Shown here: positions 3,187-28,869 of the stretch, in pieces
Numbering within the stretch: position 1 is the stretch's first letter
Layout: the number at the start of each line of letters is the position of its first letter
Notes under the pieces: generated by a model
What the model was told of the DNA's origin: nothing
Databases searched by the model: none
The model's input: the letters and a program-made list of their open reading frames with translations, nothing else
Translations under genes and position numbers: made by a program
Virus record (IMG/VR): IMGVR_UViG_2778261177_000009
Coordinates: 1 to 30,130 of that record
Origin: a virus
Taxonomy: Duplodnaviria > Heunggongvirae > Uroviricota > Caudoviricetes
Reading direction: 5' to 3' (one strand)
Length of the DNA: 30,130 bases

Positions 3187-3459
3187 CTATGACAATAAAA
3201 GAATTGCCTCTTCAACAACCTGCTTTCTTTTTAATAACATCGTTTCAGTAGATGCTTCATTTTCTGCATCAATATACTTGTCTTGAAGTTCAAGTATTTT
3301 TAAATCTATAGCGTCGTCACATTCAATAACTCCACTTGCTATGATTTTGTCACGTTGATTTACTTGCGCTGTAGTGATATCGCTTCCGCTCATGTTTCCA
3401 TAATAATCAACGATAGCCTTGAATAACACATCTGCCTGTTTTGCATCTGAACCAGTCAT
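3187..3459 (-). CDS. small acidic protein translationally coupled to the tailspike
   Basis: Its ATG overlaps the tailspike stop (TAATG); 90 aa, acidic, no TM helix; lies in the same AT-rich block as the tailspike C-terminal domain. Confidence 0.5.
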   Translation of the reverse strand: MTGSDAKQADVLFKAIVDYYGNMSGSDITTAQVNQRDKIIASGVIECDDAIDLKILELQDKYIDAENEASTETMLLKRKQVVEEAILLLS

Positions 3460-5870
3460 TAATTATACCCCGCTATTCTGATTTCTTTCATATAATTGTT
3501 ATTTACGTTATGTGTCATTTTAAATAACACATACCAACTATATGCAAGTCCATGTGTTTCATCTGCCATTTTTACAAAGCCAGGGGCAGTTGACCCCATT
3601 TGAGTTACTATTGTAGTGTTTTCAACTCCAGATGTAGCAACTTTTGAATTAGAAAACGCCGTGTAAGGATCTGTATTTATATCTCCGTCAAACGATATCA
3701 TCTGAATTAAACTTGCTTCAACAGTAGATCCTGCTGCTGCTGCATTCTGATCAGGTGAAATGTTAAATCTTATAAAAGCTCTTATATCATCAATAGCTTT
3801 TATATCATCTGGAACCCTCCACATGAAGTAAAGATCAACACCGTTTTTTGTTGATACTAATTTGTTAAATGTCCATGATAATGTGTCTGCTTTGTCGTTC
3901 AGAATTATTTCTGATGGTCTTAAATAAAAATATCTTCTGAACCAACCAAGAACAGTATTATTGGTTAAAAACCATGATTGCAGGTTTGTGCCACCAAAGC
4001 CTATAGATTTAGGGTTTTTATTTATTTTGTTTCCGCTTGCGTTATTATTTGCGAAATACAACTCATTTATGTATGCCCCCTTACCATGAAATGCATCAAT
4101 AACAGAGTATTTTGCACGAAGAGCGACAACATTATCAGCTGATGCAGAAATGTTTCTTATAATATTCGGCATGTTAGCATCATTATATGAATCATCAGTA
4201 TAGTAGGTGGCTACACCATTAATGCAGTCACCAACATCTATATTCTCAACAAGACAACCTTTTGCATTATTTAATAGAACCATCTCCGAAGATGCTGTAC
4301 GACCTAATTTTGCAGCTCGTAAATCTTTAAACCCACAGTTTTCTACAAAGTTTGTAGCAGCTCCTGAACCATTAATAGTTCCGGCAGTCATAGGCTTAAG
4401 TAGATCACAATCTTCAATCCAGCAATCTGTTGAGTTTGCAATAAAACCAAATGCATAATAAGTGCGAACAAGATCCGCCTTTTCAACGGTAGCACCTTTT
4501 GCAATTACATCATAACAAGATGGAGAAGAGGAAGAACTATCGTTACCAAAGTTAAACAATTGAGTCCAACCATCACCAACCACATCGAAAAATCTTATAT
4601 GCTGTGCATTAACACAATTAAATGCATAGCCTCCCCAATAGCTGGAATCAGTAAACACTGCAGACATGCGCAAGCCATAAACTTTACATTTCTCACACTG
4701 AACATAAGACTGATTATCTCTCAGGTAAGATTTCAGTGGTAACTCTGCCATCGTAGAATCAGCAACGGAAGACGGGTAATTACCGGAATTGTATGCCGCT
4801 TTTGCTTTTTTATAGTTCCATTCTCTGCCACTCCCAAAAACGAAACCACCACGACCATACATTGACAATGGGTTTATCTGTTTTACCGTAGCCCCATATC
4901 CTATAATTACAACATTGCTGGGTACGAACTGAATAAAATCAATCCAATAGGTTTTACCTGGTGTGAAATATGCTACACCGCCACCTAAAGATCGTAACCA
5001 CTCAAACATATTAAACATTTTTTTAGAATTAGCATGAGCGTCTGGCTGGGAATCAGTAATAACGCCCCATGCCTCAGGACAAGTCCACTTACCAATAAGT
5101 TGATTTAAAGATCCAGACCCTGGCATGCCCAGCAAAGACATACCAAGACCATCTTCATGAGATGCTAACTTTATTGCGAGATCTGCTGTATCTGTCATCG
5201 AAAAAACAGGTATTGGCTTTCCGTTGCTATCCCATCCTAACAACGAGTTTTTCCGAACAGATACCGGGCTTAGTTGGTCAACAGTGCTTTCTGGAACCCG
5301 TAGAGTTCTCGCAAAATTACTGTCAATCTTCTGATCAAGAATGGCATCACCAGCTTTCCAGGCATTGGTGTTGTCAACGATCTGCCCATCAACATAATTC
5401 TTCGTGGCTGCGTCCTGCGCCTGTGACGGGTCACGAAGGTTACGAATGCGGTTGTTGAGTGCGTCATAATAGTTCGCGATGAACGACGGCTTGCGCAGCG
5501 CCAGGCGTAGAAAGCTGAAACACTGCTGGATAAGCATGGTCAGCTTGTCGAACGCATCCTCATGGACCTCTGCGAAGAACTTCCCCTGGTTACGGAGGTC
5601 AGTCTCTTGGGTAACTGGGAGGTCGCGCGAGATAGAAATCTGCCATCCGTTGGCCAGCGGTGACATCAGCACGACATTCCCGCCAGAATAGGTACCCGCC
5701 CCGGTAACGGAGTAATCGGTATCCAGAGTCAGCACCGTAATATTTTCGTTAAGGTCAGCGACCTGGACGGTGAGATCTGACTTCTTGAAGATGCGGAACG
5801 TGTACGGGAAAGATGTGGTAACGCCGTTCCCTGTGTAGTCGTTATGGTCGACTTCGGTTGAGACCGTCAT
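3459..5870 (-). CDS. tailspike protein (conserved N-terminal virion-attachment domain plus beta-helix receptor-binding/depolymerase domain)
   Basis: GGAG RBS; 803 aa; N-terminus MTVSTEVDHNDYTGNGVTTSFPYTF recalled as the conserved tailspike anchor of epsilon15/phiV10-type phages; C-terminal two thirds are AT-rich with Gly/Asn/Ser-rich beta-helix-like repeats. Confidence 0.8.
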   Translation of the reverse strand: MTVSTEVDHNDYTGNGVTTSFPYTFRIFKKSDLTVQVADLNENITVLTLDTDYSVTGAGTYSGGNVVLMSPLANGWQISISRDLPVTQETDLRNQGKFFAEVHEDAFDKLTMLIQQCFSFLRLALRKPSFIANYYDALNNRIRNLRDPSQAQDAATKNYVDGQIVDNTNAWKAGDAILDQKIDSNFARTLRVPESTVDQLSPVSVRKNSLLGWDSNGKPIPVFSMTDTADLAIKLASHEDGLGMSLLGMPGSGSLNQLIGKWTCPEAWGVITDSQPDAHANSKKMFNMFEWLRSLGGGVAYFTPGKTYWIDFIQFVPSNVVIIGYGATVKQINPLSMYGRGGFVFGSGREWNYKKAKAAYNSGNYPSSVADSTMAELPLKSYLRDNQSYVQCEKCKVYGLRMSAVFTDSSYWGGYAFNCVNAQHIRFFDVVGDGWTQLFNFGNDSSSSSPSCYDVIAKGATVEKADLVRTYYAFGFIANSTDCWIEDCDLLKPMTAGTINGSGAATNFVENCGFKDLRAAKLGRTASSEMVLLNNAKGCLVENIDVGDCINGVATYYTDDSYNDANMPNIIRNISASADNVVALRAKYSVIDAFHGKGAYINELYFANNNASGNKINKNPKSIGFGGTNLQSWFLTNNTVLGWFRRYFYLRPSEIILNDKADTLSWTFNKLVSTKNGVDLYFMWRVPDDIKAIDDIRAFIRFNISPDQNAAAAGSTVEASLIQMISFDGDINTDPYTAFSNSKVATSGVENTTIVTQMGSTAPGFVKMADETHGLAYSWYVLFKMTHNVNNNYMKEIRIAGYN

Positions 5871-6327: not shown

Positions 6328-6350
6328 AAAGGCCGCAAGAGCGGCCTATC
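6328..6350. terminator. hairpin terminator between convergent genes
   Basis: Stem GGCCGC / GCGGCC with loop AAGA, T-rich sequence on both sides; overlaps the stop of the minus-strand gene 6346..7074. Confidence 0.45.
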
Positions 6351-7074
6351 GTTTCGCTTTGTGCTCATCCCAGCACGTTTTGCACCATGCCATTAAACCA
6401 TCCGCATTTTGATTATTAGGGTAAAAGCTGGTTCGTTTTCTGCGGACATTACAAATTGGGCACCACTTCATATGGCGTGTATTCTTTGGGCCATCGAGAC
6501 ACCTTGCACACCACTTAGTCAATCCATCTGGATTTTTTGACGATTTCCTGAATTTTTCATATGGAAGGTTTATTCTGCATCGCAAGCACTGCTTGCTACC
6601 ACTTGAGACTCTATTAGCTGATTCTTCTTTTGGCGGCGATACAGAAGGTATTCTTGCTGGCTCTGATACTGCCTGAGGTGCTTTTTTAGATGACTGAGAC
6701 GATATGTCATCACCAGGGAATCTTCCATGATATGCCGGAGGCGTTGACACTCCAGGTGGAAGCTCAGCTGTAAACGGCTTTGGCTGAATCAGTTGCCTCT
6801 CTTTTGCTAACTCCTGCTGTTTATAATATGTCTGGATTACCGCACTATCATAAGCAGGAGGTGCGGAAATATTAGGCGCATTACCTCCAGTTTTTTGAAA
6901 CTGAGTAGAGGTGTGTTCTATCACCTGTGTACGATTAATCGTTATCTCTCCATCTTCGGTCTTTATCGTTTTGTTATGATTAACGACCGTACGATCAGAG
7001 ATCTTAGTCTTGTTCTGGTTGATAACGTAAATAATCACCGCAACCACACCAACAACTATCCAGAAAACTTCCAT
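6346..7074 (-). CDS. membrane-anchored protein with two tandem C-x2-C-x22-C-x2-C zinc-ribbon repeats
   Basis: GAGGA RBS; N-terminal TM helix (VFWIVVGVVAVIIYVI), Pro/Ser-rich linker, then two repeats CLRC..(22)..WCARC and CPIC..(22)..WCKTC sharing a DGL-x2-WC core. Confidence 0.6.
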   Translation of the reverse strand: MEVFWIVVGVVAVIIYVINQNKTKISDRTVVNHNKTIKTEDGEITINRTQVIEHTSTQFQKTGGNAPNISAPPAYDSAVIQTYYKQQELAKERQLIQPKPFTAELPPGVSTPPAYHGRFPGDDISSQSSKKAPQAVSEPARIPSVSPPKEESANRVSSGSKQCLRCRINLPYEKFRKSSKNPDGLTKWCARCLDGPKNTRHMKWCPICNVRRKRTSFYPNNQNADGLMAWCKTCWDEHKAKR

Positions 7075-7093
7075 TGCTTTTCCTCACAATAAC

Positions 7094-7110
7094 ATTACCT
7101 TAAAGGTAAT
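7094..7110. promoter_or_regulatory. TTACC-N5-GGTAA palindrome, site B (ATTACCTTAAAGGTAAT)
   Basis: Perfect palindrome 20 bp upstream of the start of the minus-strand gene 6346..7074; includes a TACCTT that could be a plus-strand -10 preceded by TTGCTT. Confidence 0.5.
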
Positions 7111-7186
7111 ATCTTGCTTTCAGGTGATCAAGCGTTAAACGCAACCAACCAAATACGGTTGATTTTAATATTTCTTCGTGTTTATC

Positions 7187-7204
7187 ATTACCTTTGCGGT
7201 AAAT
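7187..7204. promoter_or_regulatory. TTACC-N5-GGTAA palindrome, site B2 (ATTACCTTTGCGGTAAAT)
   Basis: Second copy 93 bp downstream of site B, in the leader of the antirepressor-like gene. Confidence 0.45.
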
Positions 7205-7292
7205 TTACATCGCACTCCTCTTGTGCCATAGTAATCGGGCACTGGCAAAATCCAGTGCCGGGATTGGTCTCCCGGATTACTAAGTGGCGCAT

Positions 7293-7316
7293 ACCACGCC
7301 AGACGTGGTTTTTTTA
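7293..7316 (+). terminator. intrinsic terminator inside the 5' leader of the antirepressor-like gene
   Basis: Stem ACCACG / CGTGGT with loop CCAGA followed by TTTTTTT; preceded by another stable hairpin (GGCACTGG / CCAGTGCC, 7238..7259). Confidence 0.45.
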
Positions 7317-7473
7317 TGCGTATAGCACAGTCATGCCAGAATTATGGTGGGCTGAATGGGGGTCCGAAAGGACGCCGGTACCACTTAGGCCGGTAAGACC
7401 AACTCCGTTCAGTTCACCACCATCTGATTGGTCTCAGCGGTGGTGATGTAATTCGCTAAGTGGAGACACCATC

Positions 7474-8130
7474 ATGAACGCTCAACTCATCCCCGTATTC
7501 AACGGCACTATATCTAACGAAACAGCCCTACTTTGTAATGCCCGCGATCTGCACGCTTTTTTAGGTGTTAAAAAGGTGTTTGCAGCATGGATTACAAATC
7601 GCATTTCAGAATACGAATTCATTGAAAATCAAGACTATATTTTGCTTTCCAATTTGGGAAAGCAAACATCTGGTAGAGGCGGCCACAACCGCAAAGAGTA
7701 CCACCTCACCCTCGATACAGCCAAAGAGCTGGCAATGGTCGAGCGTAACGAAAAAGGTCGCCAGGTGCGACGCTACTTCATTGAATGCGAGAAACGTTTA
7801 AGACAACAAGAAACAAAAGTGGAGAACGTCTTGTCAGGCTTCATGCCCGCCATTATGGAGGCGATCAAGCTGGAAGACAAAAAAGAATACAGCGCCCCAC
7901 TGAAGCCCGGCTACCGCAGCCTGATTCACTCGCCGTCTGGTGTTCTCGGCCTGACGGAGAACTCACTGCTGATGAATCTGCTGAACCAGTTACAGGACGA
8001 CGGGCACGACGTATCGGGCGCGGCGGCGGAACTGACCACCATGTTCTGCTACATCGTCGGTGTGAGCAAATGCCTGCGTAATATCCAGACACACGCGGAA
8101 TACATCAACGACAAGGCAGGGTTCTTCTGA
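7474..8130 (+). CDS. phage antirepressor-like protein, AntA-type N-terminal domain plus C-terminal domain paralogous to 6066..6323
   Basis: GGAG RBS; N-terminal region ([33 protein letters not shown] ... [35 protein letters not shown]) matches the AntA/AntB antirepressor domain from recall; C-terminal about 80 aa aligns with the LexA-box gene product. Confidence 0.7.
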
Positions 8131-8138
8131 CTGGCGGT

Positions 8139-8160
8139 GGCACAGGGATGTGCCTTTAAA
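8139..8160 (+). terminator. hairpin terminator after the antirepressor-like gene
   Basis: Stem GGCACA / TGTGCC with loop GGGA followed by TTTAAATAATT. Confidence 0.4.
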
Positions 8161-8201
8161 TAATTCTGTACAGATTGCAGACTGGGGGTGAATAGCGTAC
8201 T

Positions 8202-8218
8202 ATTACCTTAAAGGTAAA
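8202..8218. promoter_or_regulatory. TTACC-N5-GGTAA palindrome, site C (ATTACCTTAAAGGTAAA)
   Basis: Core 15-mer identical to site B; 42 bp upstream of the start of the two-gene operon at 8260. Confidence 0.5.
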
Positions 8219-8259
8219 CCTGTTTTTATTTTATACCTGTAACTTACCGGAGATTAAAG

Positions 8260-8586
8260 ATGACAAAACTTGGATTCGTGATGAGAGGTCCGGTAAGAAG
8301 CGGAACTCATGCAAAGCGTAGCAAGAGTCGTATTTTTACTGGTAAGGTTGTAGCACGTAAATCAGCTATTGGCTCGTTCAATAGTGAAAATGCGGCATTG
8401 CGCCATATTTTTATCAGCACAAAGCCAAGAGCATCCGCTGATGTGCATACAATGTCTATTCCTATCACAAAGAGTATAAAGCGGATAAAAAAGCTCTCAT
8501 CTGCAGAATCAAAAGAGATATCTTTCCGCCAGCTTAACTCATTAGAAACGCATATGAAGGAAGAGGAATTCGATGTTTTTGAGTGA
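8260..8586 (+). CDS. small basic protein, first gene of a two-gene operon (candidate antitoxin/regulator)
   Basis: GGAG RBS 7 nt upstream; Lys/Arg-rich N-terminal half and acidic C-terminus (EEEFDVFE); overlaps the downstream gene by 14 nt; AT-rich. Confidence 0.45.
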   Translation: MTKLGFVMRGPVRSGTHAKRSKSRIFTGKVVARKSAIGSFNSENAALRHIFISTKPRASADVHTMSIPITKSIKRIKKLSSAESKEISFRQLNSLETHMKEEEFDVFE

Positions 8587-9085
8587 GTATAGCGGGAAGG
8601 TTATACCTACTGGTGAGTTTAAAACTGATGACTTTCTGATTTCGCTAAAAGATGCTTTTAAACAACACTGGCGTCATGGTCATCATCCTGATCTGGGAAA
8701 AGATACTCTTTTTGAAAGACCAGACGAAGTATTAGGTTTCCATCTCAGAAAGGTTCATGTCAATATTGGTGAATATGCATCATATTCATACTCATGTACT
8801 GAACAGTGTTGGGATGAGTGGTCATACGGATTGATTGATGAACAAGGAAATTACAGGCCAAAACCAACCAGTAACGCATATCTCATATATGCAGTCAATG
8901 AAATAAGAGATGCAGCCTTACTAGCTTATTGGGACCCGCCCGCACACACCAAAGCTAACGCAAAAGTTTGGATGGATTCCGTATTGAATTTCACAAAATT
9001 ATTTCATGAACGAACGAATACAGCTCCACTTAGTAGAAATGTTTATCCGTGGGATTATTCGTACAAATCCAAAAAGCCTGCATAG
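8573..9085 (+). CDS. hypothetical protein, weak collinear similarity to YafO-family toxins (candidate toxin or abortive-infection effector)
   Basis: AGGAAGAGGAA RBS inside the upstream gene; by eye three collinear blocks resemble E. coli YafO (GKDTLF vs GRDALY; RKVHVNI vs ERVAHIH; AYLIYA..AALLAY vs AHLVYC..AWLLIA); His-rich motif HWRHGHHPD; AT-rich. Confidence 0.5.
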   Translation: MFLSEYSGKVIPTGEFKTDDFLISLKDAFKQHWRHGHHPDLGKDTLFERPDEVLGFHLRKVHVNIGEYASYSYSCTEQCWDEWSYGLIDEQGNYRPKPTSNAYLIYAVNEIRDAALLAYWDPPAHTKANAKVWMDSVLNFTKLFHERTNTAPLSRNVYPWDYSYKSKKPA

Positions 9086-23315: not shown

Positions 23316-23608
23316 TCCTGTTCACTGGCCTCTTTGGCCATCTTCAAATACTGTTCAGGGCAATGCGCCATAACGCGCTGAAACAGTTCCAGCGCCAGAT
23401 TGCGTTGCCCCTCATTAAATGCCATTGCCATAGCGTCCATCGGTGAGATAGCGGAAAACACACGGCCTTTCTCCAGCACCGACCAGACAACGCGACGCCC
23501 CTGTTCACTGCTCATGACAAAGCGAATGTCATCAATTTCACGCTGTGCCATGTCACGTTGCTTACGGGCGTTTTCTTCTTTCAGTTGATCGTCTTCGTAA
23601 TCTGTCAT
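23312..23608 (-). CDS. small head-assembly-associated protein
   Basis: 98 aa; overlaps the portal stop and scaffold start. Confidence 0.45.
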   Translation of the reverse strand: MTDYEDDQLKEENARKQRDMAQREIDDIRFVMSSEQGRRVVWSVLEKGRVFSAISPMDAMAMAFNEGQRNLALELFQRVMAHCPEQYLKMAKEASEQE

Positions 23609-25284
23609 TGTGATTGCCCACCCTGACCACTAACTGCATTCGCCATAGCTGACAAAACACTCGGATCCGAAGTTTTAGCTTCGCTTAGCGTCTTGGCCCC
23701 CTGTGCCGCCGCCATCCCCATCGCCATCATTTGTTGCTGCTGTTGCTGCTGTGCCCGTTGCTGGCGCGCCTGCTCAACCTGTTCCTGCGGAACAATGACG
23801 GTTGGAGACACTCCGGACATATCAGCGAATGCATCGATCGCCTGATCAACGTTGAGTTTGTCGAGAGCTTCTGGTTTCGCTTGCGCAAGTTGACCAATGA
23901 AGTTAACCGTGGACGCGAGACTGGACAGGCCGATAGACTTCTGCGCCTGAGCCATGACGGAAATGTATTCGACCTTCAGGGGCATACCTTCCATCGCGTC
24001 AGGCGGTGGTGGCAGCATGTTTTTACGCACCATCATCGAGAAAGCGCGGTCAATGAGAGGATTAAGACATTCGTCGTTCAGACGCTCCAGAACCGGCCCC
24101 AACATCAGAAGTTTTTCTTCTTTCATTTCGATCACTGCTTCAACAGGCATCGAGCGGGTATTGATGTTCTGCAACATCATGAACAGATCGACAAAGTAGG
24201 CGCTGTTAATGATTTGGCGAGTGTCCTGAATGTCTGCTACCAGATCTGCTGTACTGGGGTTAACCAGATAAGCAGGCCTGAAACCATCCTGACCAGTAAT
24301 CTGATCGATATACGTGATGTCGCCAGGAAGAAGGGAGGCGCGCTGATTCTTGAGGGAAGTCGGAGCAACCATCGGCGGATTGGTGGCTTTATCAATCAAC
24401 TGCGACTTGCGCTTCTGGAGAAGCTGCAATGCCTTAACAGGTCCAAGCGCCAGCATACCCGGGCATGATGAACCATAAACATCTTCGCCGTTAACTTCCC
24501 AGCGCGGAGCCATAATTGGAAACTCATCGAATCCGGACTCACGCAACAACTTGTCGTTATCGCCACCAACCTCGTAATAAACCGATTTGAATGGCTTGTT
24601 CTTGCTATCCAACTTCGATGTGTCGCGGTCAATGTTCGGGTAAACCGAATGCATCACTTCAACCCACTTCTCGTAGGTGCCGCTTTCCCACATGCTTTTT
24701 ACGGATTCGCTGACGTTATTTAGCCCGAACTCCTGAACAAGCTGACGAACAGTCATAGAGAACTTGCGAAAACAGGTGTCAACACTGCCACGAGGTGAGT
24801 TAGCCAGGTAGTAACTGCCTATCGGGAATGGCATTGTGCGAATGATGTCCTCATCATCCTCCAGTACCGCCATTGCACCGGTGCTGTATGTGCCGAGGCT
24901 TCCGTATAACTGCGGCAGCGACTGATAGAGATTCGACTTATTGAACATATCGTTCATGCGGTTCTGCACCGCCTCAAGCCACAACTTAACAGGGCCATAA
25001 TCCATCATTTCAGGATCTGGCGTAGCCAGGCGAAACCACGGACGCGCGGGGCTTGTGATGCCTGACATCATGCCGCTGGCGAGAGTGCGCGCCGCCATGG
25101 TCCCGGTCGAATCAATAATGCGTGTATTGCGCCGATCGTTACGGTTGGCCTCAGAAGTCAGAAAGCGGGAACCACGCGGGTTGATGTAATCACTCAACTC
25201 GCGCCAGTGCGGCTCGAACGACTGACGCTCGCTTTCAAGTTGTGCGAACTGTTTGTTCAATCGCTCTTTAGTTGTTTCCGCCAT
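23605..25284 (-). CDS. portal protein
   Basis: 559 aa; first large gene of the head module after the terminase genes; Gln/Ala-rich C-terminal tail. Confidence 0.7.
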   Translation of the reverse strand: MAETTKERLNKQFAQLESERQSFEPHWRELSDYINPRGSRFLTSEANRNDRRNTRIIDSTGTMAARTLASGMMSGITSPARPWFRLATPDPEMMDYGPVKLWLEAVQNRMNDMFNKSNLYQSLPQLYGSLGTYSTGAMAVLEDDEDIIRTMPFPIGSYYLANSPRGSVDTCFRKFSMTVRQLVQEFGLNNVSESVKSMWESGTYEKWVEVMHSVYPNIDRDTSKLDSKNKPFKSVYYEVGGDNDKLLRESGFDEFPIMAPRWEVNGEDVYGSSCPGMLALGPVKALQLLQKRKSQLIDKATNPPMVAPTSLKNQRASLLPGDITYIDQITGQDGFRPAYLVNPSTADLVADIQDTRQIINSAYFVDLFMMLQNINTRSMPVEAVIEMKEEKLLMLGPVLERLNDECLNPLIDRAFSMMVRKNMLPPPPDAMEGMPLKVEYISVMAQAQKSIGLSSLASTVNFIGQLAQAKPEALDKLNVDQAIDAFADMSGVSPTVIVPQEQVEQARQQRAQQQQQQQMMAMGMAAAQGAKTLSEAKTSDPSVLSAMANAVSGQGGQSQ

Positions 25285-25298
25285 TTCAATGACTCCGG

Positions 25299-25505
25299 TT
25301 ACTGACCAAGCAGCGTTTTACCGCTGGTATTAGCGGTTGATGTGTCGCCCTGAGAACCGGTAAGCAGCGTAGAACTACGACCAGCAGCAGCGCGACGGCG
25401 ACGTGTTTCTTCGTCGCGGGCATCAACAACGGCGGCATCCTGCTCCTGTGGTGCTGCCTGAACTTCTGGTGTTGCAGGCACTGATGGTGAGCTACCCATG
25501 CACAT
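25299..25505 (-). CDS. small Ala/Gln/Ser-rich protein preceding the portal
   Basis: GGAG RBS 8 nt upstream of the ATG; 68 aa, low complexity; stop is 15 nt from the portal start. Confidence 0.4.
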   Translation of the reverse strand: MCMGSSPSVPATPEVQAAPQEQDAAVVDARDEETRRRRAAAGRSSTLLTGSQGDTSTANTSGKTLLGQ

Positions 25506-25573
25506 ATCAATGACTCCGTACGCAATTAAATTATTACCAATTTAACCACATATGTTTTATTTATCGTAGGCAG

Positions 25574-25602
25574 TTGACATTTAACGCACGAATTATTACC
25601 TT
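25574..25602 (+). promoter_or_regulatory. sigma70-like promoter (TTGACA, 17-bp spacer, TACCTT) overlapping palindrome site D
   Basis: Perfect -35 hexamer TTGACA at 25574..25579; the TAnnnT hexamer TACCTT at 25597..25602 lies inside the palindrome; oriented toward the tRNA and the plus-strand ORF. Confidence 0.45.
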
Positions 25603-25611
25603 TAAGGTAAC
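25595..25611. promoter_or_regulatory. TTACC-N5-GGTAA palindrome, site D (ATTACCTTTAAGGTAAC)
   Basis: Same motif as sites A-C; lies between the portal-proximal gene (start 25505) and the tRNA island. Confidence 0.5.
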
Positions 25612-25932
25612 CAAAGAGCTCATTCCGGTTACTAACCTGACTGGCTTGTCGTTAAATTGAACAGGTGGAGTGAGCTTTTATTTTGAGCAGTACGGCGTAT
25701 GGCACATGCGCCGATAGCGGTCTGGATACGTTTAAGGGGCACCCTCCCTTGCTCGGGCAAACGAACCAGGTAGCCGGAATGTGCAAGTCGAGCGGTTTTA
25801 TTCCGCGCACGGGGATTCACCATCCCGGCGATTCGGTGTGACGCCTCGGAAGAGACGAGGGTACAACGATGAGAGCATTTATGGAGCCGCGACAAAGTGT
25901 GGTGCCTTAACAGGCTAAGTGCTCTCAGCGTT

Positions 25933-26009
25933 GTGGCATTAGCTCAGTCGGACAGAGCAACCGCCTTCTAAGCGGTTGGTCGCAGGTTCGAATCCTGCAT
26001 GCCACGCCA
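25933..26009 (+). tRNA. tRNA-Arg (anticodon UCU), phage-borne
   Basis: Hand-folded cloverleaf: acceptor GTGGCAT/ATGCCAC, D-stem GCTC/GAGC, anticodon stem ACCGC/GCGGT with loop CTTCTAA, T-arm GCAGG-TTCGAAT-CCTGC, discriminator G and encoded CCA. T-arm matches E. coli argU as recalled. Confidence 0.85.
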
Positions 26010-26052
26010 GAATCACGCCTAAGGACCGTGATGCCAGAAGTTCCAGGTGCTT

Positions 26053-26094
26053 GGCGGTGATGGTTTCCCTTGAAGAACTATCACCGCCCTTTTT
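26053..26094 (+). terminator. hairpin terminator downstream of the tRNA
   Basis: 9-bp stem GGCGGTGAT / ATCACCGCC with 18-nt loop followed by CTTTTT. Confidence 0.45.
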
Positions 26095-26172
26095 ACAGCA
26101 GGACGCCATTGCGATGACTTCATGCTGTAAACCAGTACAGCCACGGAAGGCATAACTCATTGCTTCCAGTTC

Positions 26173-26196
26173 GCCCGGTTCGCCGGGCATTTTTTT
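26173..26196 (+). terminator. strong intrinsic terminator 12 nt upstream of the ORF at 26208
   Basis: Stem GCCCGG / CCGGGC with loop TTCG followed by ATTTTTTT, ending just before the RBS AAGGTGAG. Confidence 0.55.
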
Positions 26197-26207
26197 AAGG
26201 TGAGATT

Positions 26208-26564
26208 ATGAACGACCAGCAAATAGAAAAAGAAATCGTTGAGAAAGGAAAAACCGCTCCGCGAGTTACGCCCCAATATATCGAAAGCATCATTCTTGAA
26301 GAGCATTTCTTTACTGCTTATGACGGTATTCGTGCCGCCAGTATGGGCGTTGGCGATACGTGGACAGCGCATAAATCTACAGACCTCCTTACTTTCTGCG
26401 TACTGGTGCTGAAGAATGGCTTCACCGTCACCGGAGAGAGCGCATGTGCAAGCCCGGAAAACTTTGATGCAGAAATTGGTCGGAAGATTGCCCGGCAGAA
26501 TGCTGTAAACAAAATCTGGATGCTTGAAGGTTACTTGCTGAAGCAGAAGTTAAGCGAGCAATAA
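26208..26564 (+). CDS. conserved small phage protein, possibly N4 Gp49 / Sf6 gp66-like (moron)
   Basis: AAGGTGA RBS; 118 aa; plus-strand gene inside a minus-strand module with its own terminator; family call from recall is uncertain. Confidence 0.55.
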   Translation: MNDQQIEKEIVEKGKTAPRVTPQYIESIILEEHFFTAYDGIRAASMGVGDTWTAHKSTDLLTFCVLVLKNGFTVTGESACASPENFDAEIGRKIARQNAVNKIWMLEGYLLKQKLSEQ

Positions 26565-26568
26565 CACC

Positions 26569-26580
26569 GTGACATGTCAC
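26569..26580. repeat. 12-bp perfect palindrome GTGACATGTCAC, copy 2
   Basis: Exact repeat of 9351..9362; sits 4 nt upstream of the terminator hairpin. Confidence 0.6.
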
Positions 26581-26583
26581 AAA

Positions 26584-26612
26584 CAGCCAGCCTATGAGCT
26601 GGCTTTGTTTTA
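26584..26612 (+). terminator. rho-independent terminator of the plus-strand moron
   Basis: Stem AGCCAGC / GCTGGCT with loop CTATGA followed by TTTGTTTT. Confidence 0.6.
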
Positions 26613-26654
26613 TCCTCACCAGAGGATATCAACGACATTATCCCCACCAGCGGA

Positions 26655-28130
26655 TTAAGCATAGGGATCGTAATCTGTAATGGCCTTTCCTTGCTGGTTC
26701 TGCTGACCTGGAATTCGCAGACGCTTCGACACAGGGAAAGCAAACGTCAGCAATAGCGCATCGCCTTTACCCGGCGAACGCCCAAGCCGCTCCTTGATAT
26801 CTTCCTTCGGTTCGATAACGATTTTACCGTCCACTCGAACTTTGTACTCTGCCGCCGACAGGTCGTCCGCTGTTTCCTGGTCATCAAGCATCCCGCCCAG
26901 CCTCAGCCATGTCTTGCATGAGTTGAACATCTCCCCACGCTTGTTGAGCATCTGCGGGTCAGTAGACGCGCCACCGAACGGAACAAGTTGCCATGTGCGC
27001 CCCCAACCGTCACCGATTGACTTCAGACCGGTACCGTAACCAAAGTCGATGAACACTGCGTCAGCCTGATACAGGTCTTCAAAGTCAGCGATACGCTTCG
27101 CCATAATCAGATCGTCGGTAGTCTTGTTGCCAGTCCACAGCACCTTACTGTGTAGCCCCTGCCGCAGGTATATCACCGCGTCATCAACGCCTAAATATGC
27201 CGGGTCAACACCGATTATCACCGGAGCATGCGCCACCTGCGCAGCGGTTACCACCCGTTTCATTGCCTCATCAGTAAGACCGGTAGGGATAAACTGCAAT
27301 TCAGATGCATCAGGGAATATGCCGCGCACACGGATTTTAACGAAGTAGCTGTCTTCCCCGTAGTCATCAACCCATTTCTGCAACTGCTGTTTGTTAGTGC
27401 CTTCCACCGTCCGGCTGTCAATCTGCGCAGTTTTCCAGCGGTGTTTATATTTGCGGAAACATTCGCGGAAACGCCCGGTGTTACGTGTAGGGTTTCCGAA
27501 CGCCACCCAGATAATCTCAGTGTCTTCGTCCGTAAGCGCACCCTCAGCAACTTCCCACACCAGATCCGCAATGTTCGACGCTTCATCGAATACCACGATG
27601 ATGCGTTTGCGCTCGTTGTGTAGTCCGGCGAATGCCTCAGTGTTGTGCTCAGACCAGGGGATTGCGTCAGCTCGCCACCGCTTGTCGTGCCCAGGATCAT
27701 TGCTGTACATCGCGGTAGCGGTACAGGTAAACCAGTCTTTCGTGATAGCAAGGTTCGACCACTTGATAATTTCCGGCCAGGTCTTCGTTCGTAGCTGGTT
27801 GTCGGTGTTGGCAGTCACCACGACCTTACAATCCTCGCAAGTGGACATGCCCCAGTTGATCAGCATTGAGATGAATGCGGATTTACCAATACCGTGACCA
27901 GAAGCGCGTGCCAGCATAAGCGGCTGATAGCGCGTCTCTGGATTCTGCAGGTGATCACGTATCTCTCGGAACGCATCAGCCTGCCACTGACGTGGGCCGG
28001 TGGCATGTGCCAGTTCAGTCCCCTCTTCCCCCCACGGGAACGCATAGAGGGCATAGCCAAGCGGATCGTGAGTGAACCCTGCAATATCCTCGATCAACTG
28101 CTCTTCAGGAGATAACGCTGTATCTGTCAC
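26655..28130 (-). CDS. terminase large subunit
   Basis: 491 aa; Walker A-like GHGIGKS and Walker B-like IIVVFDEAS; start overlaps the stop of the upstream small gene as in terS-terL pairs; precedes the portal. Confidence 0.75.
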   Translation of the reverse strand: MTDTALSPEEQLIEDIAGFTHDPLGYALYAFPWGEEGTELAHATGPRQWQADAFREIRDHLQNPETRYQPLMLARASGHGIGKSAFISMLINWGMSTCEDCKVVVTANTDNQLRTKTWPEIIKWSNLAITKDWFTCTATAMYSNDPGHDKRWRADAIPWSEHNTEAFAGLHNERKRIIVVFDEASNIADLVWEVAEGALTDEDTEIIWVAFGNPTRNTGRFRECFRKYKHRWKTAQIDSRTVEGTNKQQLQKWVDDYGEDSYFVKIRVRGIFPDASELQFIPTGLTDEAMKRVVTAAQVAHAPVIIGVDPAYLGVDDAVIYLRQGLHSKVLWTGNKTTDDLIMAKRIADFEDLYQADAVFIDFGYGTGLKSIGDGWGRTWQLVPFGGASTDPQMLNKRGEMFNSCKTWLRLGGMLDDQETADDLSAAEYKVRVDGKIVIEPKEDIKERLGRSPGKGDALLLTFAFPVSKRLRIPGQQNQQGKAITDYDPYA

Positions 28131-28759
28131 TGATTACCATCCTGACGTTCTTTGAGTCGCTTCCTGGCTGCTGCTATGCGATCAGCAATTGTCACATTCA
28201 CATTAACATCCAGACGTTCTTTGAACGCGTTAACGTCGACGTGCTTACCGATGAGCTCGAGGTTTTTCACCTTGTCGGGCCATTTCACCTTCTTCAGGAT
28301 ATGCTCGACATCCTCAACAGAGAGATCCGCCTCGCCATTCTCTTTTTGCAGGGAAGCCTGGGTTGTCTTGATGGTAGCGATATCCATAGCACTGAGAGAG
28401 GTACGCCAGACCTTCGGCCATTCAGCGATCGGCTTCATCCCGCCGTCATCGTTCAGTATATCCAGCACGTCCATCTGGTCGATCTCCACCAGGCGCATGA
28501 GAACGTAATCAGCACTGACGCGCATTCGTTTGTTGCGCTCCTCCATCAACTCGGCAATCCGTTTTTGAATGCGTTCATCGCGCATCATGACACTGGCTTT
28601 AACTGCCGCTGTATTTGGGGAGAATCCTGCGTTAATCGCTGCCTGAGTCTGGTTTTCAGGCGTTTTGATGTATGACTGGCAATAAGCCTCCTGCATTGCT
28701 GTTAGTGGCTTAAATTGCGTTGATTTGCGTTTATAGGTTTTAGGTTCAGCAGGCATCAT
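28127..28759 (-). CDS. terminase small subunit (putative)
   Basis: Immediately upstream of and overlapping terL. Start taken as the first ATG (MMPAEPK) with GGTGG RBS; the ORF track extends to a TTG at 28837 across a tandem repeat, which is judged non-coding leader. Confidence 0.5.
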   Translation of the reverse strand: MMPAEPKTYKRKSTQFKPLTAMQEAYCQSYIKTPENQTQAAINAGFSPNTAAVKASVMMRDERIQKRIAELMEERNKRMRVSADYVLMRLVEIDQMDVLDILNDDGGMKPIAEWPKVWRTSLSAMDIATIKTTQASLQKENGEADLSVEDVEHILKKVKWPDKVKNLELIGKHVDVNAFKERLDVNVNVTIADRIAAARKRLKERQDGNQ

Positions 28760-28776
28760 AACCACCGTGGTAATAG

Positions 28777-28791
28777 TTACCGTTGTGGTAA
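28777..28791. promoter_or_regulatory. TTACC-N5-GGTAA palindrome, site E (TTACCGTTGTGGTAA)
   Basis: Formed at the junction of a tandem 18-bp direct repeat (GTGGTAATAGTTACC / GTGGTAATAGTACC, 28767..28798); 18-32 bp upstream of the proposed terS start. Confidence 0.4.
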
Positions 28792-28869
28792 TAGTACCAT
28801 GCAAAATAAAGCCGCCATAGTTGGCGGCAGTATTCAAAACCCGTCAAATTCATCATGCATAATCTACTC

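Follow-up and report, generated by a model that had tools for sequence, protein, structure and literature searches.

How does RNA polymerase reach a gene that lies directly behind two intrinsic terminators? The question is raised by a stretch of 30,130 nucleotides from a tailed virus (IMG/VR record IMGVR_UViG_2778261177_000009, positions 1 to 30,130; hereafter the window), in which the genes for TerL, the large terminase subunit, and for the portal protein are split by an island of approximately 1.37 kb on the opposite strand. The island carries, in order, a promoter with operator-like repeats, a leader hairpin, an RNA of approximately 240 nucleotides, a tRNA-Arg(UCU), a terminator (T1), a hairpin, a second terminator (T2) and a cargo open reading frame (ORF). 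The features listed in an earlier note on this DNA, which put the gap at about 1.4 kb, were all found in place or very nearly so, and its observation is confirmed; of its overall interpretation, the need for read-through and the phage-borne tRNA stand, whereas the view of the region before the tRNA as a passive leader does not. Viewed as a tRNA island the locus is unremarkable, and several phage records annotate it already. The part of it that deserves follow-up is an unannotated structured RNA family at 25693-25935, which is conserved, strand-specific and supported by covariation, and is no passive leader. Its parts are as follows.

25693-25935, plus strand: conserved structured RNA of approximately 240 nucleotides, with helices P1 to P6 and a pseudoknot (alignments A1, A2 and A5)
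25693-25701 with 25705-25713, plus strand: helix P1, CGGCGUAUG-GCA-CAUGCGCCG
25718-25725 with 25766-25776, plus strand: helix P2, CGG/CCG closing pairs, UAG bulge, variable tip
25787-25789 with 25827-25829, plus strand: helix P3
25812-25815 with 25823-25826, plus strand: helix P4
25818-25821 with 25835-25838, plus strand: pseudoknot, CACC in the P4 loop pairing with a GGUG further downstream
25844-25848 with 25856-25860, plus strand: helix P5, CCUCG-GAAGAGA-CGAGG
25862-25880 with 25917-25935, plus strand: helix P6, approximately 19 base pairs, UACAAC-G.U-GAGAGCAUU / AAGUGCUCUC-A.C-GUUGUG

Covariation carries this fold. In a structure-blind MAFFT alignment (A2) of 30 representatives sharing less than 90% identity, standard pairs fill 96.5% of the pair cells, compared with 29-44% when the partners are slid by one to three columns. 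The structure was drawn from the same sequences in which pairs were then counted; the slid controls are the fairer comparison. Eleven of the 33 pairs have changed on both sides (65 cells), and none of 500 shuffles reached the observed values, although this control overstates significance because the family is narrow and its sequences are related. A second alignment (A5, 28 representatives), used for P6 and P5, gave 94.2% of cells paired against 33-63% in the slid controls, with 10 compensatory pairs, eight of them in P6; in total, 19 distinct base pairs show compensatory changes. The pseudoknot also covaries, from CACC/GGUG to AACC/GGUU, and the many G-U pairs make the structure specific to the plus strand. 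Helix P6 surrounds a hypervariable insert of 40-80 nucleotides, and the final three bases of the element, at the end of P6, are positions 1-3 of the tRNA. Elsewhere the element contains long invariant single-stranded blocks, which suggest binding to a conserved host machine.

A covariance model of the family (R1, 161 positions) scores 147.5 bits on the element in the window. A search of 25609-25932 against the 4227 models of Rfam 15, which include EAR, C4, riboswitches and ribozymes, gave no match at E up to 10, the copies in phages mEp460 and P1 match no Rfam family either, and neither topic nor sequence-string searches of the literature turned up an account of it. A protein-coding leader was rejected: no frame is open across the 30 representatives, and 166 of 187 gap runs are not multiples of three. 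Two individual coding candidates were likewise discarded, namely a minus-strand ORF of 87 amino acids at 25632-25895 and mEp460_037, which is annotated on the minus strand and overlaps the mEp460 copy.

The family extends far beyond this phage type. A sensitive search with 25506-25932 as the query found 77-83% identity, over 25692-25932, to non-coding DNA of unrelated phages, both lambdoid (mEp460, cdtI, 2H10, PhiR40_1-type, Stx2c phages and Stx2a_1447/WGPS2) and of the P1 group (P1, P7, D6, SJ46 and RCS47), with weaker matches in Klebsiella phage SopranoGao, Stenotrophomonas phage BUCT708 and mEp390. The homologies all start at 25692 or 25693, giving the element a sharp 5' boundary. It is present in 1840 of 5426 complete Escherichia coli genomes, about one third, at 2474 places of which 554 are on plasmids, and none of the matches listed in searches of E. 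coli, phages and plasmids coincides with an annotated feature. Pattern scans found it in Kosakonia, Citrobacter, Klebsiella, Kluyvera, Buttiauxella, Erwinia dacicola and other enterobacterial genomes, as well as in 120 viral contigs and in metagenomes; of 100 metagenome loci on which the covariance model was run, 87 scored 49-158 bits. Two contigs binned in Oscillospiraceae and Bacillota metagenome-assembled genomes (L025 and L037) hold a 19-mer of the element, with 150 bits for L037 and no hit for L025, and probably reflect binning contamination.

The contexts fall into three kinds. Epsilon15-like phages have the order portal, gp3, opposite-strand island and TerL. In P1-like phages the element lies within the C1-controlled ban operon, where it starts 15 nucleotides past trnI (tRNA-Ile2, CAT) and ends approximately 100 nucleotides before ban, or in D6 before other genes. 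In lambdoid phages and prophages it lies downstream of cI and heads the early-left operon, starting 0-50 nucleotides after a TTGACA-N17-TAATGT-type promoter flanked by operator-like repeats, which is apparently pL. Specifically, in cdtI, 2H10 and Stx2c phages the cI terminator is followed by TTGACA-N17-TAATGT between inverted repeats, approximately 50 nucleotides and then the element, and in other prophages the element begins at the predicted transcription start. Taking 157 copies together, tRNA-Arg begins at +225 to +243 in 31, tRNA-Ile2 (CAT) ends 15 nucleotides upstream in 30, and 96 have no adjacent tRNA. Five early-left ORFs tested from mEp460, mEp390 and BUCT708 contain no N-like Pfam domain, a weak negative as Pfam covers N proteins poorly, and the first early-left ORF of mEp460 has no arginine-rich N-terminus. 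For the related N-less phage LLS, a 2025 study suggests a put-like mechanism, and goes no further (PMC12315714). Epsilon15 itself retains a remnant (L002, 3529-3599; 27.6 bits) comprising only helix P1 and the start of P2, which jumps straight to the 3' half of T1, so that a single deletion has taken everything between, namely the remainder of the element, the tRNA and one half of the terminator.

For the sequence that follows the element, a strict definition of a terminator was adopted, that is, a hairpin of -10 kcal/mol or better followed by at least five consecutive T, in place of a laxer first scan that had given equal counts on both strands. By this measure a terminator lies at +150 to +900 on the same strand in 98 of 112 distinct downstream contexts, and on the other strand in only eight of the 112. 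A T1-type hairpin, GGCGGU...ACCGC followed by CUUUUUACA, is common to epsilon15-like and mEp460-type phages, and in both a second hairpin starts within its U-tract. Beyond the terminators, each of approximately 13 genuine distinct downstream clusters has a co-oriented ORF within about 700 nucleotides; minus-strand ORFs listed ahead of it in three clusters were judged spurious. In mEp460 (L005, 2884-3020) the T1-like terminator after the element reads GGCGGUACCAG...CUGGUACCGC then UCUUUUUACAAAAC, and a long hairpin with a stem of approximately 15 base pairs starts inside its U-tract. The mEp460 sequence CGCUCUUUUUACAA also resembles a boxA.

In the window, the corresponding features are these.

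26053-26094, plus strand: terminator T1, a 14-base-pair stem then C-UUUUU (scan: hairpin 26053-26088 then CTTTTTAC)
26173-26196, plus strand: terminator T2, GCCCGG-UUCG-CCGGGC then A-U7 (scan: hairpin 26173-26188 then ATTTTTTT)
26208-26564, plus strand: cargo ORF of 118 amino acids, Phage_gp49_66 family (N4 gp49 / Sf6 gene 66; PF13876)
26585-26604, no strand assigned: T3, a hairpin terminator separating the cargo ORF from the convergent TerL gene, found on the plus strand by scan

The two intrinsic terminators of the earlier note are well founded: T1 and T2, like T3, are G+C-rich hairpins directly followed by a U-tract. The stem of T1 covaries between E. coli and Klebsiella phages, T2 is conserved and is annotated as a rho-independent terminator in epsilon15, and the T3 hairpin is annotated in phiV10 as a terminator of the opposite strand. 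The cargo ORF belongs to PF13876 (118.7 bits against a gathering score of 27, E = 1.6e-34) and does lie directly behind T2, its ATG being 11 nucleotides past the last U. A scan finds no promoter-like site between the terminators and the ORF, which must therefore depend on read-through, as had been claimed. Comparison with related phages shows the terminator-then-ORF layout to be kept in epsilon15, where it is annotated, in Klebsiella phages and in phages with a different cargo. In four of the latter loci (L041, L106, L130 and L053) an unrelated ORF of 262-296 amino acids replaces the gp49_66 gene behind T2; these proteins have no significant family match, with at most weak matches to long defence proteins, and their sequences suggest a hydrophobic N-terminal part followed by a coiled-coil-like region. 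In the epsilon15-like phages, cargo ORFs start 12-30 nucleotides after T2 and no promoter-like site intervenes.

Upstream of the element lie three further features.

25530-25538 and 25592-25600, plus strand: ATTATTACC repeats, operator-like, the second overlapping the promoter -10 hexamer
25574-25602, plus strand: putative sigma-70-like promoter read from the sequence, TTGACA (25574-25579), 17 nucleotides, TACCTT
25613-25682, plus strand: leader hairpin P0, AAAGAGCUCAUUCC ... GGAGUGAGCUUUU then UUUUAUUUU (minimum-free-energy folds)

The plus-strand promoter proposed in the earlier note can be read from the sequence and is conserved, but it falls below the threshold of the scan tool: its -10 hexamer TACCTT matches at three of six positions and was missed, and the tool reported no promoter-like site in 25200-26800. 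The TTGACA hexamer and the overlapping ATTATTACCTTT..GGTAA motif are kept in Citrobacter, Klebsiella and Pseudescherichia relatives. Exact copies of ATTATTACC number just two in the whole window. Allowing one mismatch raises the count to 16, where 5.2 would be expected; among these are two sites upstream of TerS, at 28769 and 28787 (28769-28795), and one at 7184-7192 upstream of an isrK/C4/antA unit described below. In the epsilon15 record, 'repressor' binding sites are marked both at the position homologous to the island promoter and upstream of TerS. The repeats at the island promoter, at TerS and at isrK/C4/antA are candidate operators of one repressor. We infer that the island is an opposite-strand, repressor-controlled transcription unit running against the late genes, and as such it would be early. 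Hairpin P0 is specific to epsilon15-like phages, in which its stem is retained despite altered sequence in epsilon15 and Klebsiella phages; the homologous stretch of epsilon15 is annotated 'RNaseIII mRNA processing'. The description of the leader as G+C-rich holds mildly (53% for the whole leader and 60% for its core, against 49% for the window). A separate promoter for the element (TTGAAC at 25657, 16 nucleotides, TATTTT at 25679, start at approximately 25691) is left as a candidate possibility; it matches at eight of 12 positions and is not conserved in the Klebsiella or epsilon15 relatives.

Collectively, these observations lead us to propose, tentatively and with a confidence that stops somewhat short of even, that the element is a cis-acting read-through RNA, that is, a processive antiterminator comparable to put or EAR and lying outside the put family. 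The structured RNA would modify, in cis, the very polymerase that transcribed it, in the manner of put and EAR. Polymerases from the early promoter of the island would then pass T1 and T2 to reach the promoter-less cargo gene, and in lambdoid phages the modified polymerases would reach the whole early-left operon. An RNase P cut at the 5' end of the tRNA would free tRNA-Arg, which could help to decode the AGA codons in which the tailspike and accessory genes are rich. In this reading the element would be transcribed first, ahead of the terminators, and would be needed for the promoter-less genes behind them; its invariant blocks could bind a conserved host machine, and it would depend on no shared phage protein. 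The bolder claim, that the RNA at 25693-25935 founds a third class of processive antiterminator RNAs that, like put and EAR, need no protein, and licenses early-left transcription in N-less lambdoid phages, is more doubtful.

Several observations weigh against a read-through role. In phage P1 the copy, which lacks helix P6, is preceded by approximately 2.3 kb of the ban operon, and no obvious terminator stands ahead of ban. Epsilon15 has lost helices P2-P6, the tRNA and the 5' half of T1 and has kept T2 and an intact ORF, so the ORF can persist without the element. Several prophages have no clear promoter immediately upstream of the element, and a stand-alone RNA gene would equally have a terminator after it. 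As the family is narrow (115-160 bits), its contexts cannot be counted as independent. In P1, polar CRISPR interference against trnI and against ban leaves plaque formation unaffected (PMC10695390). Finally, the resemblance to put amounts to one short hairpin, and R1 is blank in HK022 and HK639.

The alternative that survives best, though we hold it to be on the unlikely side, is that the element is the gene of a stable, trans-acting non-coding RNA, expressed early and with its ends set by tRNA processing and T1. Trimming would be by RNase P at the 5' end of tRNA-Arg and by 3' processing of trnI in P1, and the product would have a host or phage target, on which it might act, for example, as a decoy, a sponge or an anti-defence RNA. 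The exact adjacency to tRNA-Arg (31 of 157 copies, at +225 to +243) or to tRNA-Ile2 15 nucleotides upstream (30 of 157) speaks for such a gene, as do the end of P6 on tRNA nucleotides 1-3 and the same-strand terminator that nearly always follows; the compact, double-pseudoknot-like fold with its invariant blocks would suit a stable RNA or a ribonucleoprotein, and the P1 copy lies among RNA genes, namely a dicF-like region and three tRNAs. Against it, 96 of 157 copies lack an adjacent tRNA, and a co-oriented, seemingly promoter-less gene always follows the element. The whole early-left operon of lambdoid phages would then sit behind the terminator of an RNA gene, and no gene for a partner protein is common to the contexts.

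It is improbable that the element is instead a processing or stability module of the early transcript that leaves the polymerase unmodified, in which case it would direct cuts by RNase III, RNase E or RNase P, or shield the tRNA or mRNA from decay or Rho. Its position at transcript 5' ends is as this would predict, the curators of epsilon15 annotated the neighbouring hairpin as an RNase III site, and the approximately 19-base-pair P6 abuts the RNase P site. The invariant unpaired blocks and the covarying pseudoknot nevertheless far exceed what a nuclease site needs, and the same core occurs with and without a tRNA.

A riboswitch or self-cleaving ribozyme is very unlikely. The pseudoknotted architecture and invariant joining regions are of the right kind, a ribozyme with its cleavage site at the 5' end would be in keeping with the sharp 5' boundary, and GCACAU at 25702-25707 could pair alternatively with AUGUGC at 25779-25784; but Rfam yields no riboswitch or ribozyme match even at E = 10, no metabolic theme unites the downstream genes, and T1 lies 110-140 nucleotides past the element with a tRNA insertable between them, which leaves no direct expression platform. 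That the locus is an ordinary tRNA moron, with a functionless leader and an ORF expressed by leaky termination, is hardly credible: epsilon15 does keep the ORF and T2 without the element, and AGA enrichment alone accounts for the tRNA, but the reading is largely refuted by the compensatory base changes of the leader and by its 77-83% conservation in unrelated phage families that share nothing else with the island.

If the element is a read-through RNA, it would be a new RNA that modifies RNA polymerase, in a class separate from put, and would explain how N-less lambdoid phages pass their first terminators; if it is a stable RNA instead, it is a widespread phage non-coding RNA. Either way, it sits where early transcription is licensed, and its carriers include Shiga-toxin phages, many prophages and the model phage P1.

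The tRNA and the hairpins that follow it make up the remainder of the island.

25933-26009, plus strand: tRNA-Arg, anticodon UCU, CCA encoded (ARAGORN and Rfam)
26012-26032, plus strand: tRNA trailer hairpin AUCACG ... CGUGAU (read from the sequence)
26092-26131, plus strand: nearly invariant hairpin UUUACAGCA ... UGCUGUAAA with an invariant loop, its 5' arm beginning within the T1 U-tract

The covariance model upholds the tRNA-Arg(UCU) (Rfam tRNA, RF00005, 73.3 bits against a gathering score of 29, E = 1e-15), and ARAGORN found one tRNA, tRNA-Arg(tct), with its anticodon at position 35. Approximately 505 E. coli records hold a copy at 95% identity or more. In nearly all other E. coli records the match, an annotated tRNA-Arg, is 84.5% identical over nucleotides 7-77 and is presumably the host gene; this difference marks the island tRNA as a phage allele rather than captured host DNA. 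The trailer region, at 26006-26030, is 92% identical to the Klebsiella phage. Codon supplementation, as the earlier note had it, fits the pattern of AGA use, without the fit being proof. AGA occurs at 6.4 per 1000 codons in a greedy non-overlapping ORF set that includes some short ORFs that are probably not genes; it is enriched in the tailspike (3459-5870), the accessory genes (6346-9085) and large virion proteins, and the capsid, scaffold and portal genes contain none. The tailspike ORF (803 amino acids, 3459-5870, minus strand, identified as such in the earlier note) has 41% G+C, 11 AGA and 18 AUA codons and is far more AT-rich and rare-codon-rich than the head genes.

The stretch 26081-26130 shares 96-100% identity with Klebsiella phage ST512-KPC3phi13.3, compared with 69% over the whole island; it equals the tRNA in conservation, and epsilon15 retains it too. 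These comparisons place it under nucleotide-level constraint, and it could be a small-RNA seed, a protein-binding site or a DNA site beside the terminase genes. The hairpin at 26092-26131 forms the 5' half of a small RNA suggested in the earlier note, the 3' half of which, up to T2, is variable; with no evident promoter, any small RNA from between the terminators would arise from read-through of T1. A mimic of RyhB was rejected (18.1 bits against 55, E = 2.8 in Rfam; the matching stretch is not conserved in the Klebsiella relatives). There is a precedent in 3'ETS-leuZ, a small-RNA sponge derived from a tRNA trailer: the stretch 26092-26196 likewise follows a tRNA and has a U-rich terminator at its end, although the two are not homologous.

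The late genes around the island are on the minus strand.

23605-25284, minus strand: portal
25299-25505, minus strand: gp3-like ORF, 68 amino acids
26655-28130, minus strand: TerL
28127-28837, late-gene (minus) strand: TerS (Terminase_2)

Phages phiv142-3, phiV10, O157 typing phages 9 and 10 and ZX5 share 96-97% identity over 75-82% of window positions 5131-30130, by which the window is a podovirus of the phiV10/epsilon15 type (Uetakevirus) and the island is phage DNA. An origin of the island as host DNA is ruled out by this phage-wide identity and by a tRNA unlike the presumed host tRNA-Arg. PhiV10p04, annotated in phiV10 as 83 amino acids antisense to the tRNA and terminators (25939-26190, minus strand), is very likely a spurious call; among relatives its peptide is alike only where the nucleotides are identical, and the remainder is wholly different. 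Away from the island, 7239-7424 on the plus strand matches both Rfam isrK (67.7 bits) and C4 antisense RNA (61.2 bits) above their gathering scores, and an AntA/AntB antirepressor ORF (7474-8130) lies directly downstream. By its sequence matches the isrK/C4/antA arrangement is an RNA-controlled antirepressor unit like immI of P1 and P7, in a phiV10-type phage. In the low-G+C accessory block, an ORF of 170 amino acids (8573-9085, plus strand) has a below-threshold match to YafO-like toxins (19.7 bits against 25).

Among known systems, EAR, the eps-associated RNA of Bacillus, is a structured, pseudoknotted RNA that lies within an operon and promotes read-through of distal terminators, and the P1 copy of the element likewise lies inside an operon (ban). 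EAR belongs to another phylum, has no sequence relation to the element and gives no Rfam match to it. For a stable trans-acting RNA the nearest parallels are the stable RNAs C and D of T4 and the c4 RNA of P1, which are small stable phage RNAs of early transcripts that are co-transcribed with tRNAs or excised by RNase P; they are unrelated to the element in sequence and structure, and the C4 and isrK family members of the window lie elsewhere (7239-7424). We take the P5 loop GAAGAGA to recall the boxB loop of lambda nutL, and the P6 3' strand UGCUCUU(U) to recall boxA. The boxA reading of UGCUCUU was set aside, as the strand covaries as part of a helix. The order of elements also differs from lambda nut, and no N-like protein was found downstream.

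The closest parallel is put, a cis-encoded RNA of lambdoid phages that lies just past their early-left promoter, which is under repressor control, and at a position where they have no N gene (PMC9378689). In HK022 and HK639, putL occupies the same place as the lambdoid copies of the element, and terminators and then early genes follow both. The lambdoid and epsilon15-like copies share this placement, whereas the P1 copies do not. Suppression of termination by put needs no protein factor and works through the zinc-binding domain of the beta-prime subunit of RNA polymerase, and rpoC mutations in this domain (for example Y75N) block it. The two RNAs differ in build: put has approximately 70 nucleotides and two stem-loops, and the element 165-240 nucleotides, six helices and a pseudoknot. 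There is one copy of the element per phage, whereas the HK022 locus holds both putL and putR, and the element, unlike put, is found in P1-like plasmid prophages and epsilon15-like podoviruses as well, in many cases fused to a tRNA. Membership of the put family was rejected, R1 giving no hit with E below 3 in the loci of HK022 (putL and putR) or HK639 (an annotated putL-like RNA). Helix P1 and putL stem I nevertheless share CGGCG...CAUGCGUCG..AGCG, with nine identical nucleotides within one hairpin (A followed by CGGCGUAUGGCACAUGCGUCGUUAGCGG in the element, AACGGCGCGUCUUUAAACCAUGCGUCGGGAGCG in putL). The CAUG of putL is the C26-G29 bulge that contacts RNA polymerase in a cryo-electron microscopy structure (PMC9378689). 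By estimate, a local match of this kind would arise by chance roughly once in 100, and it serves as a lead only. The put RNA still works once untethered from its transcript (PMC9378689), so that excision of the downstream tRNA would be compatible with a put-like mechanism.

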